A DNA stretch of 33,277 nt from a virus. Lineage: Duplodnaviria > Heunggongvirae > Uroviricota > Caudoviricetes. The DNA lies in the IMG/VR virus record IMGVR_UViG_2778261295_000004. One strand, given 5' to 3'. Made by a program: the position numbers and the translations under genes. Below the pieces are notes generated by a model. It was not told where the DNA came from. It searched no databases and was given only the letters and a program-made list of their open reading frames with translations. Position 1 is the first letter of the stretch, and each line of letters opens with the position of its first letter. Shown here one piece after another: positions 1 to 33,277 of the stretch.

Positions 1-258
1 ATGCAAACCGTTATTTTTGGTCGTTCGGGTTGCCCTTACTGTGTGCGTGCAAAAGATCTGGCTGAGAAATTGAGCAATGAACGCGATGATTTTCAGTATC
101 AGTATGTAGATATTCGTGCGGAAGGGATCACTAAAGAAGATCTACAACAAAAGGCAGGTAAACCCGTAGAAACCGTGCCGCAGATTTTTGTCGATCAGCA
201 ACATATCGGCGGCTATACCGATTTTGCTGCATGGGTGAAAGAAAATCTGGACGCCTGA
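1..258 (+). CDS. grxA: Glutaredoxin 1
   Basis: 85-aa ORF starting at ATG at position 1 with the CPYC redox motif; sequence matches my recollection of E. coli GrxA. Confidence 0.9.
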   Translation: MQTVIFGRSGCPYCVRAKDLAEKLSNERDDFQYQYVDIRAEGITKEDLQQKAGKPVETVPQIFVDQQHIGGYTDFAAWVKENLDA

Positions 259-267
259 TCGTCTGAC

Positions 268-300
268 AAGCCCTCGCGTTGAGGGCTTTACTGATTTTTT
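268..300. terminator. Probable bidirectional intrinsic terminator between convergent grxA and ybjM
   Basis: Inverted repeat agccctc / gagggct with a 5-nt loop followed by a T-run (ctgatttttt); overlaps the ybjM stop codon. Confidence 0.5.
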
Positions 301-665
301 CTGTGCTGTGGTTTAAACAAACTACTGATAAATAAGAAACACAGTGCCCCCAGCGCACACCAGAACACCGCGCTTAGTAACCATGCCAGCTCTTGCCAGA
401 ATGAGCGCGTCGGTGAAAAAAACAGCCGCATAATGAGCATTGAACAGGGTGCCGCCAGCATTGCGCCAAATAGAGGTTTCAGGACTTCTCTACGCTGTGA
501 AAAGAAACTGGCAACTGCTCCAGGAAGAATGAAAAATAGCAAGCCGATTTCAGGATGCCCGGCAGCCCGAAAAGCGCCTTTCATGTGCGTCGCCAGAAAA
601 AGGCACACCACAATGAAGAGGACAAAACAGCAGATTGCCCCCGCCCAACGTTGTTTATGTTTCAC
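288..665 (-). CDS. ybjM: Inner membrane protein YbjM
   Basis: 125-aa strongly hydrophobic ORF, GTG start, in the conserved position between grxA and ybjL. Confidence 0.7.
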   Translation of the reverse strand: MKHKQRWAGAICCFVLFIVVCLFLATHMKGAFRAAGHPEIGLLFFILPGAVASFFSQRREVLKPLFGAMLAAPCSMLIMRLFFSPTRSFWQELAWLLSAVFWCALGALCFLFISSLFKPQHRKNQ

Positions 666-934
666 TCGTTCCTCCTGACACTGCGTCTATCGAACACATT
701 TTTCGCCAGTGTGGCGTTCAGTAAGATAAAGCCGCTTCGCATTCCATGCTAATATAGGCCAACGCAATTCATATAGCCGTTGATACCTAATGTGATTACA
801 CTAGTAAAATATATTGTTACTTTACTATCGTTTAGGTGCGCTGAATGAATCTGCGCCCTGAATTCTGGTAAAAAACATTATCGTAAATTACCATTTCTTT
901 CAACAGCTTACTAGTAAACAAGAAGTTAGCCTCC

Positions 935-2620
935 GTGAATATAAACGTCGCCGAATTGTTAAATGGGAATTACATTCTGTTATTATTTGTGGTCCTCGCG
1001 CTTGGGCTATGTCTCGGAAAGTTACGACTTGGTTCGATCCAACTGGGTAATTCCATTGGCGTTTTAGTCGTATCGCTGTTATTAGGCCAACAACATTTCA
1101 GCATTAACACCGATGCGCTTAATCTTGGCTTTATGCTGTTTATTTTCTGCGTCGGGGTCGAAGCCGGACCGAACTTTTTTTCCATTTTTTTTCGCGATGG
1201 GAAAAATTACCTAATGTTAGCACTGGTGATGGTTGGCAGTGCGCTGGTGATCGCCTTAGGGTTAGGTAAGCTGTTTGGCTGGGATATTGGCCTGACGGCC
1301 GGTATGTTAGCAGGCTCTATGACGTCGACACCGGTTCTGGTCGGTGCTGGCGATACACTGCGTCATTTCGGCATGGAAAGCAGGCAGCTCTCACTGGCAC
1401 TGGATAATCTGAGCCTCGGGTATGCCTTAACCTATTTAATCGGTCTGGTGAGTTTGATTGTTGGTGCGCGTTACTTGCCGAAATTGCAGCATCAGGACTT
1501 ACAGACCAGCGCCCAGCAAATCGCCCGCGAACGTGGCCTGGACACTGATGCCAACCGTAAGGTTTATTTACCGGTGATCCGCGCCTATCGCGTCGGCCCG
1601 GAGCTGGTGGCCTGGACCGACGGCAAAAATCTGCGTGAACTGGGTATTTATCGACAAACCGGCTGCTACATTGAACGTATTCGACGTAACGGGATTCTGG
1701 CAAATCCAGACGGTGATGCCGTGCTACAAATGGGCGATGAAATAGCGTTGGTAGGCTATCCCGACGCCCATGCCCGACTCGATCCCAGCTTCCGTAACGG
1801 TAAAGAAGTTTTCGATCGTGACCTTCTCGACATGCGTATCGTCACTGAAGAAGTGGTCGTTAAAAACCATAACGCTGTAGGTAAACGTCTCGCACAACTG
1901 AAGTTGACCGATCACGGTTGCTTCCTTAACCGCGTCATTCGTAGCCAGATTGAGATGCCGATAGATGACAACGTCGTGCTTAACAAAGGTGACGTTTTAC
2001 AAGTCAGCGGTGATGCCCGTCGCGTAAAAACCATCGCCGATCGCATCGGCTTTATCTCGATTCACAGCCAGGTCACTGACCTGCTGGCATTTTGCGCCTT
2101 CTTTGTTATTGGGCTGATGATCGGGATGATCACCTTCCAGTTCAGCACATTCAGTTTCGGCATGGGGAACGCTGCCGGGTTGTTATTCGCCGGAATTATG
2201 CTGGGCTTTATGCGTGCTAACCACCCGACCTTCGGTTACATTCCGCAAGGTGCATTAAGCATGGTGAAAGAGTTCGGCTTGATGGTGTTTATGGCAGGCG
2301 TTGGTCTGAGCGCCGGTAGCGGTATTAATAACGGCCTGGGCGCGATTGGCGGTCAGATGTTGATTGCCGGATTAATTGTCAGTCTTGTGCCCGTGGTTAT
2401 CTGTTTCTTGTTCGGTGCTTATGTATTGCGAATGAACCGCGCACTGTTGTTCGGCGCAATGATGGGCGCACGCACCTGCGCGCCGGCAATGGAGATCATC
2501 AGTGATACAGCTCGCAGTAACATCCCTGCGCTGGGCTATGCGGGCACCTACGCAATCGCCAACGTCCTGCTGACGCTGGCAGGGACAATCATCGTCATGG
2601 TATGGCCAGGATTAGGATAA
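935..2620 (+). CDS. ybjL: Putative transporter YbjL (YidE/YbjL-type membrane transporter)
   Basis: 561-aa ORF (GTG start) with hydrophobic N- and C-terminal membrane halves around a soluble central segment; matches my recollection of E. coli YbjL. Confidence 0.85.
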
Positions 2621-2732
2621 AACTGAAGTTGCCCTGAAAATGAAATTTTTTTGCACAACCGCAGAACTTTTCCGCAGGGCATCAGTCTTAATTAGTGCCA
2701 CTGCTTTTCTTTGATGTCCCCATTTTGTGGAG

Positions 2733-2855: not shown

Positions 2856-3074
2856 TCAAAGAGAGAGCGCCACCTGTCCTGATTTCATTGGATGCGGCTG
2901 AACCGGATTTGACTCTTTTGGCGTTGCAATCGAACGAACAAAAGTTTCATGGGTAACAAAAGTATGGCTGCAGTTAATGTTCTGGCACTGGTTGTAACGC
3001 TCTTTGGTCAATGAAGATACCTGAAAACTGCTGCGAGTATGGGCGGCACTTCCACACAGTGGGCAAATCATCAT
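2856..3074 (-). CDS. ogr: Late gene transcriptional activator Ogr (zinc finger)
   Basis: Small protein with CPLC ... CQNINC zinc-finger spacing resembling P2 Ogr; immediately downstream of D. Start refined to an internal ATG with an upstream GGAG (table ORF extends to 3107). Confidence 0.85.
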   Translation of the reverse strand: MMICPLCGSAAHTRSSFQVSSLTKERYNQCQNINCSHTFVTHETFVRSIATPKESNPVQPHPMKSGQVALSL

Positions 3075-3164
3075 TTTTCGAGTTCTCCCCATTTTTGCTA
3101 AATTCACAATAATGATACCGTATTATTCCATTTTGCAAACTTAAAAGTTCTCCATTGCGAAGAA

Positions 3165-4265
3165 TCATTCCATTTCGAAATCATCAATCCTCACTTCAAG
3201 CTCCAGACTGGTCGTAAAACCGTTATCCGGGCTGACGGTATGTGTCAGAGTCGTAATGGTCCATTCCGCATCATCTATCGGCTGTTTAAAACCACTGACT
3301 TTCACTGGCATTTCCGTGTAGAGATCCGCCCGCCCTTCTGCCAGTTGTAATGAGAATGACGCAACACCGCGTTGCAGGCGTTCCCACTGCATTTTCGCCG
3401 CTCGTTCGGCGTTGCTCCGGTTGGCATAAGTGCGATTAAGTACCAGCACGTTTTCATCCGTACCCACCAGGTAATCGCCCTGCTTCGCTTCCGGCTCTTT
3501 CTTCTGCTTCTTGGCCCTGCGCTTACGCTTCACTGTAGTGCTTTCTTTCTTCGTGGGTTCGCGGGTATGCAACCAGCTGGCAATTACGCCCGTGTAAGCT
3601 CCGCGATCCGCCAGGGTAAAGCGGTGACTGTCGCCGTCCTTACGTGTGATAGTGATCACCGACAGTGGTTTACCGCTGGCACTTTTACCCTGTCCCTGCC
3701 GGATGAATAACAGATTGCCATTTTTCACCGACGCAATAGCACCGTACTGGCGCGCCAGCCGCATCAGAAAACTACCGTCACTCTCATTAGTCTGGTCTAT
3801 ATGCTCCACGGGCTTATCCGACAGGTCTTTACCCAGTGCCATCTTCAGCTTGTGACGTGCGGCTATTTCCTTCACCACTTCCCCGACAGTGGTCTTGTGC
3901 CACGATTTTTCACGGCGGGTATTCAGCGTTTCCCTAAAATCAGCACTTCGCGCCCGGATAGTCAGGCGATCCGGTGCGCCAGTGTGTTCAATCTCGTCCA
4001 CCGTGAATGCCCCTTTCGGGAAAAGCGGCTGCCCTTTCCAGCCCAGCGCCAGCGTAATAACCGCACCACGGCGCGGCAGCACGATTTTTCCGTCGGCGTC
4101 GTCCAGCTCCAGATCAAGCTGGTCCGCTTCAAATCCCCGGTTATCCGTCAACGTCAGCCCCATCAGGCGGTTGTCCAGCACAGTGGTAATATCCCTGCCT
4201 TCAATACTGATGCTGAATGCCGGAGTTTTGTTGCCTTTGTTAACCAGTTCAGAGCTGAAATTCAC
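3165..4265 (-). CDS. D: Tail protein D (late control gene D)
   Basis: 366-aa ORF in the D position after U; GTG start overlaps the U stop (GTGA). Confidence 0.9.
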   Translation of the reverse strand: MNFSSELVNKGNKTPAFSISIEGRDITTVLDNRLMGLTLTDNRGFEADQLDLELDDADGKIVLPRRGAVITLALGWKGQPLFPKGAFTVDEIEHTGAPDRLTIRARSADFRETLNTRREKSWHKTTVGEVVKEIAARHKLKMALGKDLSDKPVEHIDQTNESDGSFLMRLARQYGAIASVKNGNLLFIRQGQGKSASGKPLSVITITRKDGDSHRFTLADRGAYTGVIASWLHTREPTKKESTTVKRKRRAKKQKKEPEAKQGDYLVGTDENVLVLNRTYANRSNAERAAKMQWERLQRGVASFSLQLAEGRADLYTEMPVKVSGFKQPIDDAEWTITTLTHTVSPDNGFTTSLELEVRIDDFEME

Positions 4266-4747: not shown

Positions 4748-7700
4748 GCGTCGTATCCCCCCTGATCGCTGTAGTTACTCCTGGCTTTTGCCTTCAGCCT
4801 GCGTTCACGTTCATCAAGCTGGCGGGCCACCTCCCGCGCAATATCCTGCGCACTTTGTCCTGGCTGTGTCTGGATGATGATCTGCGTCGGTGCCTCAATC
4901 CTGTAAACGGGCGGCACAGTGGCTGCACGACTCACAATTGCTTCTCCACCTTTCGCGGGAAGTGCCAAAGGGTGCAACGGTGGAAGCTCTGCTGGCGCGG
5001 CAGCAACGCCCATCATTCCGGCAACAACGGCAGCCAGTGCAGCTGTATTTCTCCGGCTGATCACATTTGCCGGGCCGTTAACAATTTCCGGCCCGTTTTC
5101 ACCGACGATGCCAAACTGCCCGCGCGGGATATACCCGCCGCTGTCATACATCCCCGCAAAGCCATATCCCCATGACGGGAAACCACCCGATGGCATCATC
5201 ACTTTACCGTCTGCATTCACCGTCGCAGGTTGCTGACGCGTCACGCTTTCCGGCAGTTTTGCCTTTGCGGCCTCTTTACTGACAATGCCGAGCTTCTCCA
5301 GCAACCAAGAAACGCCGGATTTCAGGGAGTCCAGCGGATGCATGACCATATTCAGCCCTTCCGCCAGTGCCTCTCCGAATCGCCGCCCCATTGCCGCTGC
5401 ACTCTGCAGTTCGGCAGAGGTCGACTTAACGGGCGTCAGCAGATCAGTAAACCAGCCCCACAGCGCCTGTACTTTGTCGCCAATCCACTGGAACACGGGC
5501 TTAAGCGGTTTGAATGCTGCACTGACGGGACCTGCCGCCGCTTTGAATCCTTCCACCACGCCACCAAGAAATGCGGTGATGGGTTGCCAGTATTTCCAGA
5601 CAACCAGCGCCAAGCCCGCCAGTGCAGTAACCACAAGACCTATCGGACTGAGCAGAGCACCTAACAGACCAGATATGGCATACAGGGCAACGCGCAGCAT
5701 CGCCAGTGGACCAGATGCCAGTACTCGCAGCACCGTGCCTGCGGCGGCCAGTCCACCGCGCAGTACCGCCAGAGGATTCATAAACATCACAGCAACAGCA
5801 CGTAAACCGGATAATCCAGACCGCAAAAGTGCAACCGGCGCACCTGCTACAGTTTTCAGGACATTTCCCGTCAGTGATGCCGTGCGGCGCAAAGACGACA
5901 ACGGCGCAGTAAGTAAACCTGCGGCGTTGCCCGATGAAGCAAGCCCGCGTCGCAGCAGTGCCAGTGGTGCGCCAGCCAGCCAGGACAACGCGCTGCTGGT
6001 TCGAGTTACTGCTGCCGTAACGGAAGGTAACGTTTTGATACCCAGCACAGATAATCCCAGACGGATCACTGCCAGCAGCCCCAGCACTGCAGCCAGCGCC
6101 ACCGCTAAGGTGCCGAGGCCTACGGTAACCGCAGCCACCACAGCGGCTACTTTCATCAGTGTGCCTGTCAGTTCCGGGTTAGCTTCCACCCAGCGGCGCA
6201 ACGCCCCCGTGATGCTTTTCACCGTGTACAGAATATCCATCAGCGGCTGGCGCAGCGTTTCGCCCAGGCTGCTGAAGGTGTTCTGCGCTCCGGTTTTGAC
6301 CAGCAACCACTGAGCAGAAAGTGAGTCTTTGTTGATGTCGGATTCTTTCTGCATGGAACCGAGCGCATCATTGCCCGCAGTCAGTTTTAGCTGGCGCTGC
6401 AGTTCCGGCAGGTTGTTTGCCAGTTTCGCCGCGTCATCGCCAAACTCTTTACCAAACAACATGGTCATGGCAGACAGGCGCTTATCCTGCGGCAGTGCGT
6501 TCACCTTCTCCAGCACACGCTGGATAGTTCCCATCGCATCCTTCGTCATCTGCTTTTCAATCACTTCAGGATTGAGCTTCAGCAGATTCATTCCTTCAAA
6601 GAAACTCTTGCTTTGCATGGTGGCAATGGACAATTCACGCACCATCGCGTTTGCTGCACTGGCTGCAACCTCTGGCGCAGCACCCAGTGTCAGGAAGGTG
6701 GAACCCAGCGCCGCCGCTTTACGATAATCCAGACGGTCAGCCACACCGCCCAGGCGTTGCATGACATCAATGATGTCCGCCCCTTTCGACATGGCGTTAT
6801 CATCCAGATAGTTCAGCGCATCACCGAGCTGTTCAATATTGCGGGTAGGTATTTTGTAGAGCTGGGCGATTTTCCCCAGACTTTCTGACAGTTCATCCGC
6901 TGGCAGCTCAAAGGCTGTTGCCGCCTTTGCCGCCGTGCTGGCGAAGGCCAGCAGGTCACGTTTCTGGTCTTCCCAGCTGTCGTCAGGGTTTGCGACGTTC
7001 ATGCGCGCCCCACCTTCAACCAGTGCGGCGAAGTCCACAGCACCGTTTTCCATCGGCAACTGTTCGCTGGCAGCCTTGATGGCATCCTGCATTTCATAAA
7101 AACGCGCAGTGCGATTGCCATTATCGCCACGCAGACCATTGACCTGCTTTGCCACACCTTTCATGGCATCTTCCATGCTGGTATAGCTTTTTACTGCCGC
7201 CATCACTGGTGCGCCCATTGCCAGCCCTGCAGCCGTGGTGGTGGCTCCGGCACCTGCAATCCGATCCCTTACTTCAAGACGCCTGGCGTAAGCCCCCCGG
7301 GCGGCGTGCATTTTTCGCTGTTGCTCCCCGACACGTCGTAACCTCGCTTCCTGCTCAGAAAGCTGCCTGTTATAACGCATCGTTTCACGGGTAATGCGGG
7401 CCGTCGCACTGGCGCCATCATTAGCTGAAATACCAGCACGATAAAGTTCTGCACGCACAAGCGCCGTCTGCTGCTGCAGCTTTTTCTGGCGTTCTTCCAG
7501 GCGCTGAACAGCCAGCCGTTGACGGCCCAGAGCAACAACCTGACGTTGCGAAGGCGGCCCCATCGCTCCCAGTTCCTGACTGAGCAAATTTGCACGCTGG
7601 CGGGCATAGTTCAGCCTGTCGCCTAATTTCTGATTTTCTGCCTGCAGCTTTCGGAAGCTGTCCAGACTGCTCCCGGCCTGATCAAGCTGCTTTATTGCAT

Positions 7701-14723: not shown

Positions 14724-14769
14724 AGGGAAAGGTTGCCATCAGGGGAAGAAAGGCGGCAGTGCTGCAACT

Positions 14770-14787
14770 TGTATCAGTGCTGATACA
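14770..14787. promoter_or_regulatory. TGT-N12-ACA dyad upstream of V (candidate Ogr-dependent late promoter element)
   Basis: Near-palindromic tgt-atcagtgctgat-aca in the 68-bp gap between the S stop and the V start. Confidence 0.45.
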
Positions 14788-14791
14788 AAGA

Positions 14792-15238
14792 TCACCCCGC
14801 CAGCCATTGCAGAATCATGTCACGGGTCATTGCCTCAACATCATCATTTACACCCAGAAGGCGACGCTCTGCGTAACGCACCTCCGGTCCCTTACGACTG
14901 ACGCGATCTCGCAGGCCGTAATGGTGAACGCGGGCAATGCGCTGCACCTTGCCTTCAAACTGCACGCTGGCAGAGTCGGTGCTGGCGGCAGTTTTCAGGT
15001 ATTTTGTGGTGCGCAGCTTTGCAAACATCTGACGTTTGATACGGCCTTTTTTACTGCGTGCTGTTACCCGTCGCGGTTCATAGCTGCTGCCGTCAGGGTT
15101 GCGCTGCATCCTGATATTCTGCTGCTGTGTCCGGCGAAGTTCCTGCGCCAGCTGGCGCATCATGCGGCTTCTCGTGGCTGGTTCCAGATTCGCCAGCAAG
15201 GCACTCAGCCAGTCGTCCACCTTCTGCAGTTCAGCCAC
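14792..15238 (-). CDS. S: Tail completion protein S
   Basis: 148-aa ORF with GTG start overlapping the end of R; P2 order R-S-V. Confidence 0.8.
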   Translation of the reverse strand: MAELQKVDDWLSALLANLEPATRSRMMRQLAQELRRTQQQNIRMQRNPDGSSYEPRRVTARSKKGRIKRQMFAKLRTTKYLKTAASTDSASVQFEGKVQRIARVHHYGLRDRVSRKGPEVRYAERRLLGVNDDVEAMTRDMILQWLAG

Positions 15239-15915: not shown

Positions 15916-16186
15916 GTTTCAGTTCCTCGATCCGGTGTTGTCGTTGTCTCAGCAGCGTGCTGGTCTGTTCTGCTTCGGCATAGAGCCGCGCCTGCTCCCG
16001 GTTATTGGTTTCAGTCAGAATGGACAGGCTGATAAGCTGGCTATTGCTCTTTGCCAGTGCCTGGCTTTTGCTCTGCAGCTCGTCTGCCTGCGTGCTGATG
16101 GTCTGGCTGGCATCAGCCAGCCGCCACGTCTGCCAGCCCAGCGCCGCCAGTAATAACGTCAGCACAACCAGCGGCAACCGGTTCAT
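15758..16186 (-). CDS. lysB: Inner-membrane spanin LysB (Rz-like)
   Basis: 142-aa ORF with N-terminal TM segment and charged coiled-coil-like remainder; ATGA overlap with lysA. Confidence 0.75.
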   Translation of the reverse strand: MNRLPLVVLTLLLAALGWQTWRLADASQTISTQADELQSKSQALAKSNSQLISLSILTETNNREQARLYAEAEQTSTLLRQRQHRIEELKRENEDLRRWADTPLPADIIRLRKRPALTGGMAYRQWLSASDAVSAGSGNAAH

Positions 16187-16560
16187 GCTGCTACCTGTTG
16201 CGCCATCTGATTACGGGTGATCCAGAAGGCAATAACGGTCAGCAGATAAAAGACCAGGGTAATAGCCCACCCCGTCCAGGCGAGACTTACAACAATCAGC
16301 AATCGCATCACCCAACTGGTAAATACGTTTTCTTTTCGGGTAATTGTCTTCAGCAAAGATACCCTTAACTCCTGCCAGAGCGGGCCATTCTTAATTAACG
16401 CAGCCAGTGCTACCGGAATTACCGCCCATGTCAGCAAACAGGCTACCCAAACGCCGGACGCTGCCAGTACCGGAAAAATCCCCTGCGGATACACCATTGC
16501 TGCGATTAACAGCGCTATCCATAACATCAGAAACAGTCCGCTGATTAATTTCTTTTTCAT
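16183..16560 (-). CDS. lysA: Lysis accessory membrane protein LysA
   Basis: Multi-TM small protein; start refined to internal ATG (MKKKLISG...) with GGGAG upstream, one base after the K stop; table ORF extends to 16632. Confidence 0.7.
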   Translation of the reverse strand: MKKKLISGLFLMLWIALLIAAMVYPQGIFPVLAASGVWVACLLTWAVIPVALAALIKNGPLWQELRVSLLKTITRKENVFTSWVMRLLIVVSLAWTGWAITLVFYLLTVIAFWITRNQMAQQVAA

Positions 16561-16561
16561 T

Positions 16562-17074
16562 TCAGTTTGCTCCCTGTAAACACCAGGCCATCTCCCGCGC
16601 ACGGCGGTTATCCAGCCCCTGATTAAACACACCTTTCACATAAACCCAGCGCGGCAACTGTCGGCACGCATCCGCCCAGCGCCGCTGATTGAGCAATTTC
16701 ACCAGCGTGGAGCTGCAGGCATTGCCTGTCCCCACGTTGAAGGCAAACGACACCACCGAGTCATACACCTTTTGTGGCGGCTGTTGCTTCACACATCTTT
16801 CCAGCGCCCGCTCCACACGCAGCACGTTGGAGATAAGCCCTTCTGCTGCCTGTCGTTCCGTAATAATTTTGCCGGGAATGACGCCCGACGTATTACCAAT
16901 GCCGTCGGTCCAGACACCCGCGCTGCACTGATACGGCTGCAGACGACAGCCTTCGTAATCGGCGATCAGTTTCAGTCCCTCCACGGAGGTGTGAAGCTGC
17001 TGAAACCCCGGCAGCGTGGCAGCAATAGCCAGCACGGCCCCGACAAGGCAGCGTTTAACGATTGATGGATTCAT
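16562..17074 (-). CDS. K: Endolysin K (T4-lysozyme-like muramidase with N-terminal hydrophobic SAR-like segment)
   Basis: 170-aa ORF; E...D...T catalytic spacing in LIADYEGCRLQPYQCSAGVWTDGIGNT; hydrophobic N-terminus. Confidence 0.85.
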   Translation of the reverse strand: MNPSIVKRCLVGAVLAIAATLPGFQQLHTSVEGLKLIADYEGCRLQPYQCSAGVWTDGIGNTSGVIPGKIITERQAAEGLISNVLRVERALERCVKQQPPQKVYDSVVSFAFNVGTGNACSSTLVKLLNQRRWADACRQLPRWVYVKGVFNQGLDNRRAREMAWCLQGAN

Positions 17075-23550: not shown

Positions 23551-24249
23551 TTATTTGTTTCTTCTTTGTTCACGCCTTGTCTTGGCTTCGATAAGGCGTT
23601 GAGGTTCAGTGTAAAGCCGTTCTAAAAAAAGATAGGTAAAATCTTCAAGATCCTCAGCAGCAGCTTTATCCAAAATACCTTCATGCGCGCCATCATTTCC
23701 GTCATCTTTAACGCATTCAGCTAGTTCCCTTAAAGCTTCAGGCAATAGATGATTATCAAATAACCAATCCATTCTTAACCCTAGGCTTCTCCTTATTTTT
23801 TGCGCAGGCCCTTGCTCCCCATCAGGAAGAAGTCCTTTTGTTGCATAATCAAGGCAAAGCCTAAACATGGTTGCTGCTGCATTATAACAACCAATAGCCA
23901 AACATTTCGCCCCTTCCTCATATGCACTATTGATATGCTCAGGTAAGAACTCTGGCGGCTCCTCTACTGCTAAGTCTGCCGGTGATATAGGCCTAACAAC
24001 CTCTGCAACTTCCTTTAAGCCGAATATTCCACTTTCCCAATTATAGCCATCTAAAGTTTTATTTTTCGTTAAAGGTCTGCAAAGAAACATTGTCGTTTTA
24101 TGACACTCTCGGCAAACACAATAGACCTCGTATTCGTATGTTTTACCCCCGCCCAATGCATTGTAAACCCTAGTGCAATTCAGCCCATTAACATCAAACG
24201 CTATTTTTTGTGATCCACATCGTGGACAGTCATCCACTAACATAACCAT
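23551..24249 (-). CDS. Cargo protein: N-terminal zinc ribbon plus C-terminal DUF4145/HEPN-like domain (candidate abortive-infection or defence effector)
   Basis: 232-aa ORF with strong GGGAGGAG Shine-Dalgarno; Cys motifs CPRC and CVCREC near the N-terminus; C-terminal ...LRELAECVKDDGNDGAHEG... resembles the GN-x-x-AH core of DUF4145 as I recall it; AT-rich compared with flanking phage genes. Confidence 0.55.
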   Translation of the reverse strand: MVMLVDDCPRCGSQKIAFDVNGLNCTRVYNALGGGKTYEYEVYCVCRECHKTTMFLCRPLTKNKTLDGYNWESGIFGLKEVAEVVRPISPADLAVEEPPEFLPEHINSAYEEGAKCLAIGCYNAAATMFRLCLDYATKGLLPDGEQGPAQKIRRSLGLRMDWLFDNHLLPEALRELAECVKDDGNDGAHEGILDKAAAEDLEDFTYLFLERLYTEPQRLIEAKTRREQRRNK

Positions 24250-24359
24250 GTCAATTGCTCCTCCCTATGAAAAAAATGAGTTGAAAAATTGAATATTCAC
24301 GACTTAAAAAGCTAGCCTATTTAACACCATAATTTCATTAATTCAACCATGAGCGCGCG

Positions 24360-24378
24360 CTCGTATCCCCGCCACGCC
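24360..24378 (-). other. Candidate cos cohesive-end core
   Basis: Minus strand reads GGCGTGGCGGGGATACGAG, matching in its first 13 nt my recollection of the 19-nt P2/186 cohesive end (GGCG(A/T)GGCGGGGAAAGCA...); adjacent perfect palindrome GAGCGCGCGCTC at 24351-24362. Confidence 0.4.
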
Positions 24379-24427
24379 TGCCCGCTTTGTGTAGTGGTTT
24401 TCATGCAGGTGCCTGATCCACGCAAAA

Positions 24428-24450
24428 GCCCGCCAGTTCTGGCGGGCCTT
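24428..24450 (-). terminator. Intrinsic terminator downstream of the 372-aa cargo gene
   Basis: gcccgccag / ctggcgggc stem followed on the minus strand by TTTTG; lies about 65 bp past the stop of the 24514..25632 gene. Confidence 0.5.
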
Positions 24451-24513
24451 AGCAAAAACGATCCTCAAACGGTCATGCAAATTCAGGCAGCATAGGCATG
24501 CACTGTTGTTAGG

Positions 24514-25632
24514 TTAGTTCGTAATGCCAATTTCCTTCAAAACTTTAGCCATTTCCGTCTGACTTAACTTGTTCCTGAACAAAGGGAAATTTTTCATTTT
24601 TTCCGCTCGTTGCCCTTTTGAAATAGTAATCTTTCCTGATGCTGATAACTCAGAGTCAAAAAAATAACATATTGTTGAATTTGAATTCTCCATATTTGAC
24701 TTGATACAATTCCATATGCTTTCTTTTTTCATTTCACACATTCTAGGACCAAAAATGATCCCTTTAACAACATTAGCATCATGATGAAAAATATGTCCAA
24801 TATTTCGATTTACGCGTCTTTGAACATGCCGCTCACTCCCTATTCCTGCATTTGCCTCTGGAATAAACATTCGATATTCAGCTTCATATCTCCAAAATCT
24901 ATTTTTAGTTAAAAATAACTCTGCAACATTTGCGCTTGGGTCTAGAAGTGAAACCTCTTTAGCCTGATTACTATATTTTATTTGCTTAACTGGAAAATTA
25001 AATTTATCTGATGAAAATAAATTTTCTCTTAGCTTCATTCCAGGATGTGGCACGCCATTAATATTAAAATCCTGCGTTTCATAAATCACAACACAACCAC
25101 TAAAGCCTGCAGCATAATGCGCCCACATCATACGATCTAACGCATTAGCTGAAAATGACACACTGAATACTGCAGGAACTATTTTCCTATACAACCTTTC
25201 TTTGATACTGTTCTCGCAAAGTGAGACCAAAAATTGGCGTGGTTCAGGAATATTCCCATAAATAGCGGAATTAATCACATTGATAGGTAGTAAACCATCA
25301 TTTATGATCTTACGTATCTCATCAACGTGTGAGTCAAACAGGCTATCTAATGACTCAATGCTACTTTTTATTTTTTTTCCTCTAAAAATACGATTCAATC
25401 CCTTATGTATCTTCAAATTACTCAAATCTAATATGTGACTCAAATTTTCATAGGATTTATCGCAAGGAGAACGCAATAAAATATCCCATAATTTCAATTT
25501 ATTATCAAAACGATAATCTATATTGAGATCATTAGGATCATTCAATTGCGCAGGAGCGGAAAAATATAATTCATTATAACGAATAGCTTTCTCGAAGAAG
25601 AAGTCCGGACGGTAATACTTGAAAAGATACAT
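24514..25632 (-). CDS. Cargo protein with DUF2971-like N-terminus (candidate anti-phage or abortive-infection protein, function unknown)
   Basis: 372-aa ORF, ATG start; N-terminal LFKYYRPDFFFEKAIRYNELYFSAPAQLNDPND resembles the DUF2971 signature as I recall it; strongly AT-rich and Asn/Lys/Ile/Phe-rich unlike the phage backbone. Confidence 0.55.
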   Translation of the reverse strand: MYLFKYYRPDFFFEKAIRYNELYFSAPAQLNDPNDLNIDYRFDNKLKLWDILLRSPCDKSYENLSHILDLSNLKIHKGLNRIFRGKKIKSSIESLDSLFDSHVDEIRKIINDGLLPINVINSAIYGNIPEPRQFLVSLCENSIKERLYRKIVPAVFSVSFSANALDRMMWAHYAAGFSGCVVIYETQDFNINGVPHPGMKLRENLFSSDKFNFPVKQIKYSNQAKEVSLLDPSANVAELFLTKNRFWRYEAEYRMFIPEANAGIGSERHVQRRVNRNIGHIFHHDANVVKGIIFGPRMCEMKKESIWNCIKSNMENSNSTICYFFDSELSASGKITISKGQRAEKMKNFPLFRNKLSQTEMAKVLKEIGITN

Positions 25633-26723: not shown

Positions 26724-29102
26724 TTAATACAGATCCCGCCACTTATCATCTTCCTGCAAACGCTGGTTCCGATAGAAGATACGCAGGCCTGCTCCTGACG
26801 GAATACTGCCGCCGCGAAGGAGTAAATCGACCTCTTTCTCGCTGCCATCAAATCCTCTGGACTTCAGTTCATAGACGAGCTGCTGTCGTTGATGGTCTGT
26901 AATTCGCTGTTTGTAGTCTCTACGCCGTTTCGGTTTCACCAGGCGTAACCTTGCAGCCAGTTCCCGGCGTTCTTTTTTGTTCATACTGTGCAGGTAATCG
27001 TGCAACTCCTTGTCATCCATACGGGTGATATCCGTTCTGGTATCCCCATCAGCTGATTTGTCTTTCCCTTGTTGGTACAAATTTTCAGCAAGGGGACAGT
27101 TATTGCCACGAGTCCGAGTCCAAGGGGCGCAAGCGCCCTGGTCGGCTGCCGCCTCCTGAACATCAACGGCCTTACGAACCATTTTCCACTTCACGGCATG
27201 AGTGCAGATCTTGCCCTCTGCAATAGGTGACCAGATGCCATAAATACGAATGCCGTGATCGCCATAGGCGGTCGGCTCTTCGTTGATTTCATAAGCGGTT
27301 CTGATGAGGTGATATTTGCGGGGAACCAGTACGCCGCCCTGCTTCATGATGTAGGTGGCAAAACAACCAGCATCAGCAGCAGCCAGGATGGCATCAAGGC
27401 GCGGGTTATCCAGTACCGGCGCACCTGCTTTTTTGTCCCCCTGTTGCCTTGCCGCCTGACCAGCCAGCAATCGCAGTTCACGGTAAGCCTGACGCCCCGG
27501 AATGCCAAAGAAGCGGAATTGCTGAACACGATGCAGAGACGCCCAGGCATTAACGTATTCAGCATTATCACGCAGGGATTTCCCCGTTTCCTTGCTGATC
27601 TCGCCAGCCAGACCACGCCCGTCAATGTTCTTACTGATGTATTTCGCGATGTAGCTTGTTGGCGTACCTTTGCGCGGGTTAATCAACTCAGACTTAAAGC
27701 GCGGCCCAGTGTTATTGCCCAGTTCCTCGCGGTCTTCACGGATGGCAAACTTACGCAGTAATGCAGTGATGGCGCGGCGGTCTTTTTTGCGCATAAAACA
27801 CAACAGGTGCCAGTGAACTGTACCGTCATGATGCGGCTCAGCCACCCGCACGCCATACCACCGCAATCCGGCTTTGTGCATCGCCTTACGAAATGCAGCA
27901 AACATGCCGACCAGATAATCACTGCTTTGTCTTACCGTCGCATTTGTCCAAGTTGGGTTGGGCCTGCCATTATTTAGCGTGGAATGGAAACGTGACGGAC
28001 AGGTGATGGTGTAGAAAACGGCGCAGTCACCGCGCATTTCCGCGATAAGCTCCAGGCCTTTAACACAGGCCATCATCTCATTGCGGCGATGCGCAGGGTT
28101 GCTGCTGCTGGCGTTTACCACATCCTCCATGTCCAGCGTGTCGCCGTCTTCGTTCACCAGTTCATGAGAACGAAAAAACTCCAGCGACTTACGGCGCTGC
28201 TCACGTTTATGCATCACGGCTTCATAGCTGACATAGGGAGATGCTTTTTTGCTGACCAGGCAGACAGCACGCAACTGCTCTTCCCGCCATTCGCAACGCA
28301 TCTTCCATAATTTCCGGTACCACCAGTCAGCGCACAACATACGCGCCAGCGAACCCGGAATGAGTTCATAGGGCACGGGTTTACGGCGGTTTCTTTTCCG
28401 GCGGAGTTGCTCAAACGCAGGCGGGATGACATCCAGACGCAGGGTTTCCGCTGCCACCTTTTCCCATGTCTTGCGGATTTCTTCTGGCTTAACGTCATCG
28501 GTGACATACAAATCGCCACAAGCTGCATCAAGGCACATGCTCATATGCGCAGCTACCAGGGTGGACAGGCGTTTCACCTGATCCTGACTCATTTCAGGCA
28601 GGATCAGCAGGCCGTCCAGCCCTTCATGGCTTGCCATAAAGCGAAAAGAAGTGGATAGCTGACAGTCGCGTACATGCTCCAGCCGTTCCAGACATGGCTT
28701 AATCGTCTCACGCAAATAGCGGGAATAAGCCTTTGGCCTGCCCAGGCTGCTGAAGTATTCAATACGTTGCATCAGTGGCTTGCTGATATGGGAAGGCTGG
28801 GCATTAACGTCCGCCAGAATGACCATATCTGGATTAAAACGCTGCTGCTCATGCGCCAGCTTTGCCCGACTAATGAGCTTATCCTGCTCCATTTCGCGCT
28901 GGACAGGATCACGGGATTCATTAAAGAAATAACGCTCCCAGACCTGATCACTCAGTGCCTCGCGGCGCAGCTGTTCCTGCTCGTTATCGGCAGCGTACAG
29001 AGCGATCAGGTTTGAAAGCGCAGAAACTGAAGATTGCTCTTCCGTCTCTACGTAAGGATTGATTGCTTTTTTCTCAGCATTCCAGGAATAGCTGTAGTTC
29101 AT
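26724..29102 (-). CDS. A: Replication initiation protein A (rolling-circle endonuclease)
   Basis: Large ORF containing ...[18 protein letters not shown]... and ...[12 protein letters not shown]... motifs typical of P2 gpA-family initiators. Start placed at ATG 29102 (GGAGA upstream, TAATG overlap with the upstream gene); table ORF extends to 29153. Confidence 0.9.
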
Positions 29103-29932
29103 TACGCAATCTCCAGTTCGAGCTGTGAAGGCTGCAAACCATTCGACAGCCAATCAGAAACTGAAGGTGGGCGAACAGCTTCAATTGCACCTTTTAAAAT
29201 TGCGCAACGGTTTTTCAGAATGACAGCTTTCAGCTCCTTTTCCGTCAGATTGCGCGAATACTCAGCCTCCTGAATAGCCCGCGTCAGCTCAGGATATTTG
29301 CTATTAAATTTGGGGACATTGCAGGCAAGATTTGTACTGTCGGCAGTCGCCAGTGGGTAATTTCCCAACACACGACCGTCAAGCATGCGCAAACCATGAA
29401 CAGCTGTTTTGAAATTGTGTCGGCAATAAATTGCTTCAAAAGCGTCCTGCATACGACGATGCCAGTGCGCAGTTCTGATAGCCGCATATTCACCAGACGA
29501 TCCAAAGCAGACACGAGGCCATTCACGACATAGCTCGATAAGCCGATCGATTGACTCGTGCAGATGCCAGACGGGAGTTGCCTTCCCGTAGAACATTTTC
29601 GGAACTTCGTTTATCAGGGCATCATTGTCACGTTCACCTCCGTCCACAACATCAGGAATGACAAAAAAAGCGACCTTAGGATGGTGGTAATAGTTCAGGA
29701 GCCATTTATAAAAATCACTCCAGTTAATTTTTAGCCCACGCACCCATGCAGAAAATGCGCCGTTATCAATGCCGACGACCTGAGCGTGCTGAATGGACGC
29801 CGCAATCTGATCTGGTCGTACATAGGAGACGAAAGCGCCAGCTCCGCTCACCGCAATACGATGAACGTCGCCAGCACTTCCCCAGACAGGCGTCCCATGG
29901 AAATGATGAATTCCGTGGTGCATTTCTTTCAC
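29102..29932 (-). CDS. Hypothetical protein between dam and A
   Basis: 276-aa ORF, GTG start overlapping the dam stop (alternative ATG at 29923); translationally coupled on both sides. Confidence 0.5.
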
Positions 29933-30783
29933 ACTTGCACCCCGAAAATAACAGTAGAGTCACGTCCCCTACTAAAATCGGCACTAAACCAATTAGCAGA
30001 TTTAGTGGCAATCATCTCTGTTGCAAATTTTCCCTCCCCCGCTGCAACGCCGATGCTGCGTTTCGCCCTGATGTAGTGGTGAGTGAAATTACGATAAAGG
30101 GACCGGGTCAAAGACGTGTTACTGTTAGAAACAATGACCGGATGTCCTTCTGATGACCGATGTTCAAGAATGGATGCCAGGTGATACTGATCATCTTCAG
30201 TGAAACCATCAGTGTGATAGCCGGAAAACGTACCGTCATAAGGCGGATCGCAATACACCACATCCCCCACCTTCAACATCGCCAGCGTTTCATCAAAGCT
30301 GGCGCAGATAAACGTTGCCCGCTGGGCTTTCTCTGCAAATGCGCGAATTTCTTTTTCAGGGAAATACGGATTTTTATAATTACCGTAGGGAATGTTGAAA
30401 TGCCCGCTCTTGTTATAGCGACATAAACCACGGTAACCGTGACGATTGAGATACAGGAAATATACCGCTTTCATGAAATCAGTAATTTCAGTGGAGTAAT
30501 TAAACTCCTGCCTTATGTTGTAATAAGCCACCTCCCTGTTTGCTTCCTCAAATAAAGCTCTGGCACGAGATATAAACGCCTCACAATCAGCAGCAACCTT
30601 TTTATAGAGGTTGATTAAATCAGGATTAATATCCGCAACAAGATAGCTGGGGTAATCCGTCTCCATCATCACTGCACAGGAACCCGCGAAAGGTTCAACC
30701 AGTCGCGGGCCAGCAGGAAGATGCTTTTTCAGTTCGGACATTATGGCGGTTTTATTTCCTGCCCATTTCAGGATGGTGCTCAT
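29929..30783 (-). CDS. dam: DNA adenine methyltransferase (Dam family)
   Basis: Start refined to ATG ([11 protein letters not shown]...) with GGAGGTG upstream; contains the ILKWAGNK and DPPY motifs of Dam-type N6-adenine methyltransferases. Confidence 0.85.
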
Positions 30784-31007
30784 ACAGCACCTCCGTTGTA
30801 ATGTTTGCCTTTCAGCTCTGCGATTTCCTGACAGGTAATGCAAAGCTGCACACCCGGAATGGCACGGCGGCGTGCTGGCGGAATTGGCGCTTCACACTCA
30901 ACGCAAAGCACGCGGGACACGCCCGGCGTTTTGGCACGGGCAGCACGGATATGGCGTTGGCGTTCTTCTTCAACGCGCTGCTGTACGAGATCCATTGCAT
31001 CAGCCAT
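30780..31007 (-). CDS. TraR/DksA-family C4 zinc-finger protein
   Basis: 75-aa ORF with CVEC ... CITC spacing; ATGA overlap with dam. Confidence 0.75.
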   Translation of the reverse strand: MADAMDLVQQRVEEERQRHIRAARAKTPGVSRVLCVECEAPIPPARRRAIPGVQLCITCQEIAELKGKHYNGGAV

Positions 31008-32635: not shown

Positions 32636-32709
32636 TCACATTTTGAAATCAATGCGACTATAAGATCACAAATTGAAATCGTCAACCATAAAGTTCACAA
32701 GGTGAAATC
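32636..32709. promoter_or_regulatory. Three direct repeats TCACA-N3-TGAAATC in the cI / apl switch region (candidate operator sites)
   Basis: Copies at 32636-32650, 32666-32680 and 32695-32709, spaced 30 and 29 bp; the third overlaps the cI ribosome-binding site. Confidence 0.5.
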
Positions 32710-32710
32710 G

Positions 32711-33277
32711 ATGGATTTTAGTCAAGGTGGAAAGAAAGCTATCGAAAGGATGGTTGAAGCCTATGGGTTCACTACAAGACAGGCGTTATGTGAACAACTA
32801 GGCATATCAAAAAGCAGTCTTGCTACACGCTACATGAGAGATTCATTCCCTTCTGATTGGGTTATTCAGTGCGCGCTCGAAACAGGAGTAAACATAAAGT
32901 GGCTGGTAACAGGCTTACCTCCTAAACATGAATATTTAACGTCTGACATCATCAATATTCAAAAAATAAAATTGATTGATGGAGTGCTATTGGATGCAGG
33001 AACACTAATGTTTGACAAAGTGTTCATTCCTGATGGTTTATCATCACCATCTGTGATATCAAACGGGAATAACTCTTATTTTATTGAGAGGGATTTCACA
33101 GATGTAGTTGATGGTGATTGGTTAATCTCCATTGATGGAAAGCATTCTATAAAACAAGTTATTAGAATTCCTGATAATAAAGTTAAGATTAACTATGGGA
33201 ATATCATTGTTGATATGAACATTAATGACCTTGTATTCATCGGCAAAGTTATAGCAGAATTCAAGATAAGAGGCTAA
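32711..33277 (+). CDS. cI: Immunity repressor CI (186-type)
   Basis: Start placed at ATG with AAGGTG upstream (table ORF starts at GTG 32606); N-terminal HTH-like segment (TTRQALCEQLGISKSSLATRYMRD), divergent from apl/cox; stop codon is the last three bases of the window. Confidence 0.7.
   Translation: MDFSQGGKKAIERMVEAYGFTTRQALCEQLGISKSSLATRYMRDSFPSDWVIQCALETGVNIKWLVTGLPPKHEYLTSDIINIQKIKLIDGVLLDAGTLMFDKVFIPDGLSSPSVISNGNNSYFIERDFTDVVDGDWLISIDGKHSIKQVIRIPDNKVKINYGNIIVDMNINDLVFIGKVIAEFKIRG

Follow-up and report, generated by a model that had tools for sequence, protein, structure and literature searches.

The DpdA of phage CAjan is genetically required for 2'-deoxy-7-cyano-7-deazaguanosine (dPreQ0) in DNA, and the DpdA of phage 9g, expressed alone in E. 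coli, inserted dPreQ0 into plasmid DNA from host 7-cyano-7-deazaguanine (preQ0). A further kind of phage enzyme, the "singleton" DpdA, was published in 2019 with the P2-like phage SEN1 among its members, and the name is used by PHROGs and in RefSeq phage records. The Supplementary Data of Hutinet et al. 2019 list SEN1 gp38 (YP_009217891), HK106 and 7-11 as encoding "only DpdA". Here we analysed IMG/VR virus record IMGVR_UViG_2778261295_000004, a 33,277-nucleotide stretch of DNA (hereafter "the window") that consists of an E. coli P2/186-like prophage and host flank. Between a dam methyltransferase gene and replication gene A, on the minus strand, the window encodes a 276-amino acid protein. 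By homology it is near certain that this protein is a singleton phage DpdA of the tRNA-guanine transglycosylase (TGT) superfamily, and it probably swaps a small fraction of phage-DNA guanines for a host-made 7-deazaguanine during lytic growth.

The first-pass annotation, made from the sequence alone, had noted a very tentative resemblance of the 276-aa protein to TGT/DpdA-like enzymes and had otherwise left it unassigned. The resemblance proved to be genuine. The protein matches PHROG 887 ("queuine tRNA-ribosyltransferase") with an E-value of 2.4e-96 over residues 2-275. A tblastn search against phage genomes returned homologues in Salmonella phages SEN1 and SW9 (75.5-75.7% identity), Pantoea phage MED16 (54.7%), HK106 (38%) and Salmonella phage 7-11 (34%). 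The "unassigned" label does not hold, as the family was published in 2019 and SEN1 gp38 is already annotated as DpdA in RefSeq. The MED16 DpdA has been reported to match the TGT structure 2ASH by HHpred with 99.18% probability (PMC8306585). A profile built from 80 diverse family members aligned to CAjan DpdA with an hhalign probability of 98.9% (E-value 2.9e-17, 171 columns). At E<=1e-3, 31 viral models were retrieved from BFVD; those that carry a name, the nt-1 DpdA2 among them, are all phage queuine tRNA-ribosyltransferases. The AlphaFold2 (AF2) model of the protein is a (β/α)8 triosephosphate isomerase (TIM) barrel (predicted local distance difference test score 89.8, predicted template modelling score 0.87), and its closest structural relatives are TGT-family proteins. 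The structural margin over generic TIM barrels (13.7) was small, and Foldseek against the PDB did not discriminate.

Only six alignment columns are invariant among the 80 family members, which are 27-85% identical to the window protein: D56, D94, H123, H179, D198 and S199 (276-aa numbering). In the AF2 model these residues lie at the C-terminal ends of β3, β4, β5, β7 and β8, and a near-invariant Gly-rich loop (G144-S-S-G147) follows β6. The invariant residues D56 (in IDNGAF) and D94 (in IPDVV), as well as the Gly-rich loop after β6 (GSSG), fall within the three segments picked out by the first-pass annotation. The codons of the principal candidate active-site residues are:

29765..29767, minus strand: codon of D56 in the IDNGAF motif, candidate general acid/base (compare D95 of bacterial DpdA and D73 of Cap10); invariant, at the end of β3.
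29651..29653, minus strand: codon of D94 in the IPDVV motif, candidate base-recognition Asp (compare D130 of bacterial DpdA and D122 of Cap10); invariant, just after β4.
29396..29398, minus strand: codon of H179, paired with D198; invariant, on β7.
29339..29341, minus strand: codon of D198 in the ADST motif, candidate catalytic nucleophile (compare D256 of bacterial DpdA and D248 of Cap10); invariant, at the end of β8.

In bacterial DpdA (bDpdA) the corresponding residues are the acid/base D95, F99 four positions on, D130, H181, a Gly-rich β6 loop and the nucleophile D256 (PMC10164549). The order and spacing of the residues in the window protein match this set, with D56/F60 here standing for D95/F99. 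The invariant residues are also co-linear with those of Cap10 (D73/S74, D122, K154 and the H226/D248 catalytic pair). D56 aligns with the Asp of the CAjan LDSGAFSA motif and D198 with the CAjan CDSS motif, while the CAjan counterpart of D94 is an Asp three positions later in the alignment. The first-pass annotation had also drawn attention to a His-rich N-terminus; an HxHG motif at β1 is conserved in the family, whereas the remaining N-terminal histidines are specific to this lineage. The HxHG motif might, together with the β5 and β7 histidines and the β8 Asp, form an amidohydrolase-type metal site; no amidohydrolase was found among the top structural neighbours of the model.

The 276-aa open reading frame (ORF) behaves as a real gene. 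Compared with homologues that are 72-85% identical in amino acid sequence, it has 0.09-0.30 nonsynonymous differences per site (pN) and 0.69-0.86 synonymous differences per site (pS, near saturation), with ratios of the corresponding substitution rates (dN/dS) of ~0.04-0.07 where computable. This indicates strong purifying selection. Its GTG start at 29932 overlaps the dam stop codon TGA, and this GTGA overlap is kept in diverged loci (80-100% amino acid identity). The NCBI Prokaryotic Genome Annotation Pipeline (PGAP) places the start at an ATG 9 nt downstream (29923), giving a protein of 273 aa (WP_001420002.1). We prefer the 276-aa reading because the GTG is conserved across diverged loci and the downstream ATG is not, so that the RefSeq start is probably three codons too short. 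Of 5426 complete E. coli genomes, 103 have a copy that is at least 99% identical, which PGAP labels "hypothetical protein". A search of 1.84 billion representative proteins, made exhaustively with a hidden Markov model (HMM), recovered 881 family representatives at E<=1e-3. Most of these align to residues ~6-205 only, which makes the helical C-terminal ~70 residues specific to the clade.

To place the gene in context, we drew 90 loci from genomes and viral contigs and compared them; they represent 53 distinct junction types. In P2-family elements dpdA is nearly always located directly upstream of A, with its stop codon overlapping the A ATG (ATGA or TAATG); such an overlap occurs at the dpdA-A junction in the large majority of the 53 junction types. 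The linkage persists even in loci whose A shares only 30-36% identity with the A protein of the window. A dam gene lies upstream of dpdA in approximately half of the junction types, and its place is otherwise taken by traR or by a small DUF5405 gene. Thus, the conserved linkage is that of dpdA with A rather than with dam. In E. coli, dam genes of the type found in the window are present in 1238 of 5426 genomes and dpdA in 103 of 5426; ~92% of the dam-carrying genomes do not have dpdA. In RE2010/Felsduovirus-type phages, dam overlaps A directly. In the window the cassette sits precisely at the boundary of dam and A, and the final ~25 codons of dam are remodelled. These codons (29929-30008) differ from those of ~1100 dam alleles of E. 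coli prophages without dpdA, and nucleotide matches to such alleles end at ~30008, which marks the left boundary of the inserted dpdA cassette. The RE2010 Dam is 90% identical to the window Dam, with a divergent C-terminal tail.

The same cassette is carried by lambdoid prophages, with 72-75% amino acid identity. In one nin region (L008, 4998-5789) the gene order is DnaB helicase, NinB, dpdA and RusA, and in another locus (L010, 3497-4351) dpdA is downstream of a Sak4-like AAA_24 ATPase. The occurrence of dpdA in unrelated temperate-phage backbones shows that it has moved horizontally. The first-pass annotation had suggested that the methylase plus a second DNA-modification enzyme would make up an anti-restriction module. 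A Dam-DpdA module overstates the link, as the two are independent cassettes that use the same slot. An obligatory dam-dpdA pair was rejected, because many P2-family and lambdoid loci have dpdA but no dam, and RE2010 and most E. coli carriers of dam have no dpdA. The idea that DpdA requires gene A as its partner was likewise rejected, given the lambdoid contexts without gene A. The varied contexts suggest that dpdA is a mobile accessory cassette of early and replication regions. A pairing of methyltransferase and DpdA does recur in Pantoea phage MED16 (L094), which has an N6-adenine methyltransferase gene at 3142-3789, ~1.2 kb upstream of DpdA (4998-5783) on the same strand. MED16 DNA carries both N6-methyldeoxyadenosine (m6dA) and dADG (2'-deoxy-7-amido-7-deazaguanosine; PMC8306585). 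Separately, a 36.6 kb Logan contig (P0011) encodes a predicted 421-aa protein in which a PF02086 Dam domain is joined to DpdA residues 46-273 (100% identical). This Dam-DpdA fusion is most likely the result of a deletion or frameshift in one lysogen or assembly.

E. coli produces preQ0 as a precursor of queuosine. None of folE, queD, queE, queC, gat-queC, arcS or queF was found in the prophage, outside two short gaps (~14725-14841 and 16144-16581) in its match to the sibling used for the check. This check used the PGAP annotation of a 92.8-99.5% identical sibling prophage, in which all genes are of the P2 family, together with direct scans of the moron ORFs and of window positions 1-2700, two regions in which the window differs from the sibling. 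As the prophage is without folE, queD, queE and queC, the base must come from the queuosine pathway of E. coli. Two relatives provide a guide to what may be inserted: dADG makes up ~0.13% of G in MED16 DNA (PMC8306585), and phage 7-11 DNA contains 50 dADG per 10^6 nt (PMC6884629).

Our results show the homology, the fold, the set of conserved catalytic residues, the place in the operon, purifying selection and the lack of precursor genes; we infer which base is inserted and how much, as well as the DNA substrate and a protective role of the enzyme. DpdA would be made only in lytic growth, from the early operon, with its translation coupled to Dam upstream and to A downstream. It would flip a guanine out of newly replicated double-stranded phage DNA. 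Asp198, aided by His179, would then displace the base to give a covalent enzyme-deoxyribose intermediate, with Asp56 acting as general acid/base, and a 7-deazaguanine base would resolve the intermediate, as in the double-displacement mechanism of TGT. The inserted base would be preQ0 from the host, possibly with dADG as its final form, as in the relatives. Substitution is expected to be sparse, at well under 1% of G, and together with Dam methylation it may alter recognition by host nucleases. By analogy, an anti-restriction role is plausible. The patchy distribution of dpdA fits a trade-off with GrwAB and Dag1, defences that are directed at deazaguanine in DNA.

Several points weigh against an enzyme that modifies phage DNA in this way, some of which concern the protein itself. 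The Pfam scan gave no match to TGT (PF01702), its sole match at E<=1 being irrelevant (0.19), and the NCBIfam scan gave no relevant match. The Pfam result is a weak test for phage DpdAs because the validated CAjan DpdA also has no Pfam match. The PADLOC DpdA HMM did not match the 276-aa protein at E<=1 (it matched CAjan DpdA weakly, at 0.0013). Searches of all PDB sequences using phmmer and hmmsearch (with two family profiles) did not recover a TGT or DpdA, and what they returned was noise (a coat protein and GCN4 coiled coils). When set against one E. coli Tgt sequence, the family profiles gave no significant hhalign alignment. We infer the residue equivalences to bDpdA and Cap10 from co-linearity and from the CAjan alignment, not from three-dimensional superposition. 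TGT and bDpdA carry a structural zinc site, CXCX2C...H (PMC10164549), whereas the window protein has no C.C..C motif and its five cysteines are at positions 135, 142, 170, 204 and 243. It is therefore neither a bDpdA nor a canonical TGT and is instead a minimal phage-type enzyme. The remaining points concern the group as a whole. Singleton DpdAs are tied to DNA modification by correlative data from 7-11 and MED16 and not by biochemistry or genetics, and functional divergence of singleton DpdAs was explicitly left open by Hutinet et al. Modification in the relatives is very low, at 0.02-0.13% of G, and zero modification was reported for the singleton-DpdA phage Orion, though its host is without preQ0 synthesis. 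Finally, none of the restriction enzymes tried on MED16 DNA was visibly affected or blocked by its dADG (PMC8306585).

This last result also bears on the best-surviving alternative, a DNA transglycosylase that uses a different base or product, such as 7-amido-7-deazaguanine (ADG, the QueC intermediate) or 7-aminomethyl-7-deazaguanine (preQ1), at a few specific sites. Its purpose might be other than bulk anti-restriction, for example as a mark for replication or packaging or in the evasion of a particular defence. Both singleton-DpdA relatives that have been analysed contain dADG and not dPreQ0, and neither has a DpdC homologue. Arithmetic from the published figures gives ~10-30 modified bases in each genome. 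A 7-amido-7-deazaguanine moiety is bound by Cap10, the protein nearest in structure, and some DpdA2 enzymes accept preQ1 or 7-carboxy-7-deazaguanine (CDG). However, all directly tested DpdAs insert preQ0 or preQ1, and the low levels may reflect the limited amount of preQ0 available in queF+ hosts. None of the sequence features that we examined separates the base specificities, and the position next to A may be a permissive insertion slot, given that RE2010 has dam there. We regard this alternative as unlikely.

A slightly less likely explanation is that the protein, though of the TGT family, has diverged in function and has a target other than DNA: it would either handle a deazaguanine-protein conjugate in the manner of Cap10 (for example on the co-translated A) or exchange a base in host or phage RNA. 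There is no Cap9/QueC-like gene and no CD-NTase in the prophage, and the lambdoid cassettes without gene A argue against A as a required partner. The nearest relatives with data (MED16 and 7-11) carry deazaguanine in their DNA, and the profile match of the family is to the DNA-acting CAjan DpdA. We consider it improbable, and more so than either of these alternatives, that singleton DpdAs, rather than modifying DNA in bulk against restriction, place 7-amido-7-deazaguanine or another host deazaguanine at a few specific sites in temperate-phage DNA in connection with replication initiation or DNA processing, a role that would explain both the stop-codon overlap with A in nearly all P2-family loci and the nin/replication position in lambdoids. 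That the protein is an unrelated TIM-barrel enzyme, with a likeness to TGT/DpdA that is coincidental or confined to the fold, is very improbable and already largely refuted. Sparse replacement of guanine in phage DNA by a host-made 7-deazaguanine remains the reading that we favour.

The dpdA gene is part of an early lytic operon which is on the minus strand and divergent from cI. The operon consists of a 73-aa apl/cox-like ORF, cII (PF06892), fil (PF10893), DUF5347, DUF2732, TraR/DksA, dam, the 276-aa ORF and A, and replication gene A (PF05840) is followed by tum-like and DinI-like genes. The four junctions preceding A all have overlapping stop and start codons, with base 31007 common to DUF2732 and traR. 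The translational coupling of dam to the 276-aa ORF and its position just upstream of A, both noted in the first-pass annotation, are supported by the GTGA and TAATG overlaps. The features around dpdA are:

32657..32685, minus strand: candidate promoter for early lytic transcription, TTGACG-17-TATAGT, upstream of the first gene of the operon, the apl/cox-like ORF (from a consensus scan only).
30780..31007, minus strand: TraR/DksA-type zinc-finger gene (PF01258, 4.4e-11).
30783-30780, minus strand: overlap of the traR/dksA stop with the dam start, ATGA (read from the sequence).
29929..30783, minus strand: dam, D12-class N6-adenine DNA methyltransferase of 284 aa (PF02086, TIGR00571).
29929..29932, minus strand: overlap of the dam stop with the dpdA start, GTGA (recurs in loci with DpdA 80-100% identical).
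29102..29932, minus strand: dpdA-like gene, predicted singleton phage DNA-guanine transglycosylase of 276 aa, GTG start at 29932 (PHROG 887).
29100..29104, minus strand: overlap of the dpdA stop with the gene A start, TAATG (gcgTAATGaac; read from the sequence and conserved across loci).
26724..29102, minus strand: replication gene A, rolling-circle initiator endonuclease, ATG at 29102..29100 (PF05840, 1.3e-127).

The promoter consensus scan did not find more sites than expected by chance from shuffled sequence. An internal promoter or terminator that would split dam, dpdA and A was considered and rejected, as consensus scan sites were no more numerous than in shuffled sequence; a terminator-like hairpin at 29974-29952, within the 3' stretch of dam, was not significant in the scan.

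The identification of the upstream gene as dam in the first-pass annotation was upheld. The protein matches PF02086 (2e-76, residues 7-244) and scores 318 bits against TIGR00571 ("dam"), above the cutoff of 114.85. It also matches the PADLOC orphan methyltransferase model (6e-110). The translation contains the DPPY catalytic motif and EPFAGSC in the N-terminal S-adenosylmethionine-binding region. All strings quoted in the first-pass annotation, for this protein and for the 276-aa ORF, occur at the positions given there. Against NF008152, the equivalog model for E. coli Dam, it scores 288 bits. Because this is below the cutoff of 441, we describe it as a member of the Dam family rather than as an equivalog of E. 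coli Dam, and GATC specificity is likely. The window contains 122 GATC sites against 115.6±9.9 expected, which is neither avoidance nor enrichment.

The left flank of the window (bases 1-2700) is host chromosome and contains grxA (cut), ybjC and ybjL (1-2620). The prophage begins with an ogr/delta-type zinc-finger late activator gene (2856-3107) followed by gene D, from which the gene order continues through tail, lysis, head and terminase genes up to cI. There is one prophage-host junction within the window, and the attachment site is expected at ~2620-2856; the cI repressor gene is truncated where the window ends. Between the portal gene and the DinI/tum-like genes, in the P2 old/tin hotspot, there is an island of low GC content (34-38%) at 23551-25632 on the minus strand. 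It encodes a 232-aa DUF4145 protein with a weak PADLOC match to PD-T7-4 (1.4e-06) and a 372-aa DUF2971 protein that matches the PADLOC candidate PDC-S31 (3e-23). The two genes are probably prophage-borne defence morons. This pair is absent from the E. coli RM10466 (NZ_CP028381) prophage, which is otherwise 92.8-99.5% identical. The RM10466 sibling (L001, 24280-26013) has an AAA-family ATPase gene and a DUF4276 gene between cI and the integrase gene, a pair typical of prophage-borne defence, and the corresponding region lies past the window end at 33277.

What our analysis adds is a family assignment for an E. coli prophage protein that was unannotated, its probable start codon, a map of its invariant residues and its linkage to A and not to dam. 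The gain is one of annotation and not of a new mechanism: the protein, which 103 of 5426 complete E. coli genomes carry under the RefSeq label "hypothetical", may now be named as a DNA transglycosylase of the phage DpdA family. Among phage DpdAs, the singletons form the largest and least understood group with respect to base, amount, site and benefit. An inducible P2/186-like prophage of E. coli would be a convenient model for them, as host genetics are available (queC, queD, queE, queF, tgt and dam) and natural sibling prophages exist that have dam only, dpdA only or both. Such a model would also be informative about the trade-off against GrwAB and the Dag glycosylases, defences directed at deazaguanine DNA.

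Among known systems, Cap10 of type IV CBASS (PDB 9NTN) resembles the window protein in fold only, with 10% sequence identity. Cap10 has as partners Cap9 (QueC-like), Cap11 and an NDG-modified CD-NTase with an M(G/S)G(G/S)GG N-terminus, whereas no such partner genes are present in the prophage. The bacterial DpdA of the S. Montevideo Dpd system (PDB 7UI4) is 413 aa long, carries the insertions Ins1, Ins2, Ins3 and Ins8 as well as a CXCX2CX22H zinc site, and depends on the DpdB ATPase. In contrast, the window protein is 276 aa long and has no zinc motif, no PADLOC DpdA match and no dpdB-K neighbours. It shares a homologous core with the DpdA1 proteins of the Queuovirinae (CAjan and 9g, validated preQ0 DNA transglycosylases) at ~22% identity. 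The motifs in common with CAjan are D-x-G-A-F-S, H-x-x-E, the Gly-rich β6 loop, the β7 His and the D-S nucleophile, while the N-terminal HxHG and the C-terminal helical tail (~200-276) are outside the CAjan alignment. CAjan and 9g carry their own folE, queD, queE, queC and preQ0 transporter genes and modify 25-32% of G; the prophage has none of these genes and far less modification is expected. Felsduovirus/RE2010-type P2-family prophages have the same backbone as the window, with the order traR-dam-A and overlapping stop and start codons, but are without the 831-nt dpdA cassette. The closest systems are the singleton DpdAs of γ-proteobacterial phages (group 3 of Hutinet 2019: SEN1 gp38, SW9 gp39, MED16 gp38, HK106 and 7-11), which belong to the same family and the same PHROG. 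Like this prophage, the singleton-DpdA phages do not have genes for preQ0 or G+ synthesis. SEN1 and SW9 are P2/186-like phages of the genus Eganvirus. Unlike SEN1 gp38, the window protein has an E. coli host and is "hypothetical" in RefSeq. SEN1 dpdA occupies the same genomic slot, with its stop codon overlapping gene A; DUF5405 precedes it there, whereas the gene in the window is preceded by the GTGA-coupled dam.

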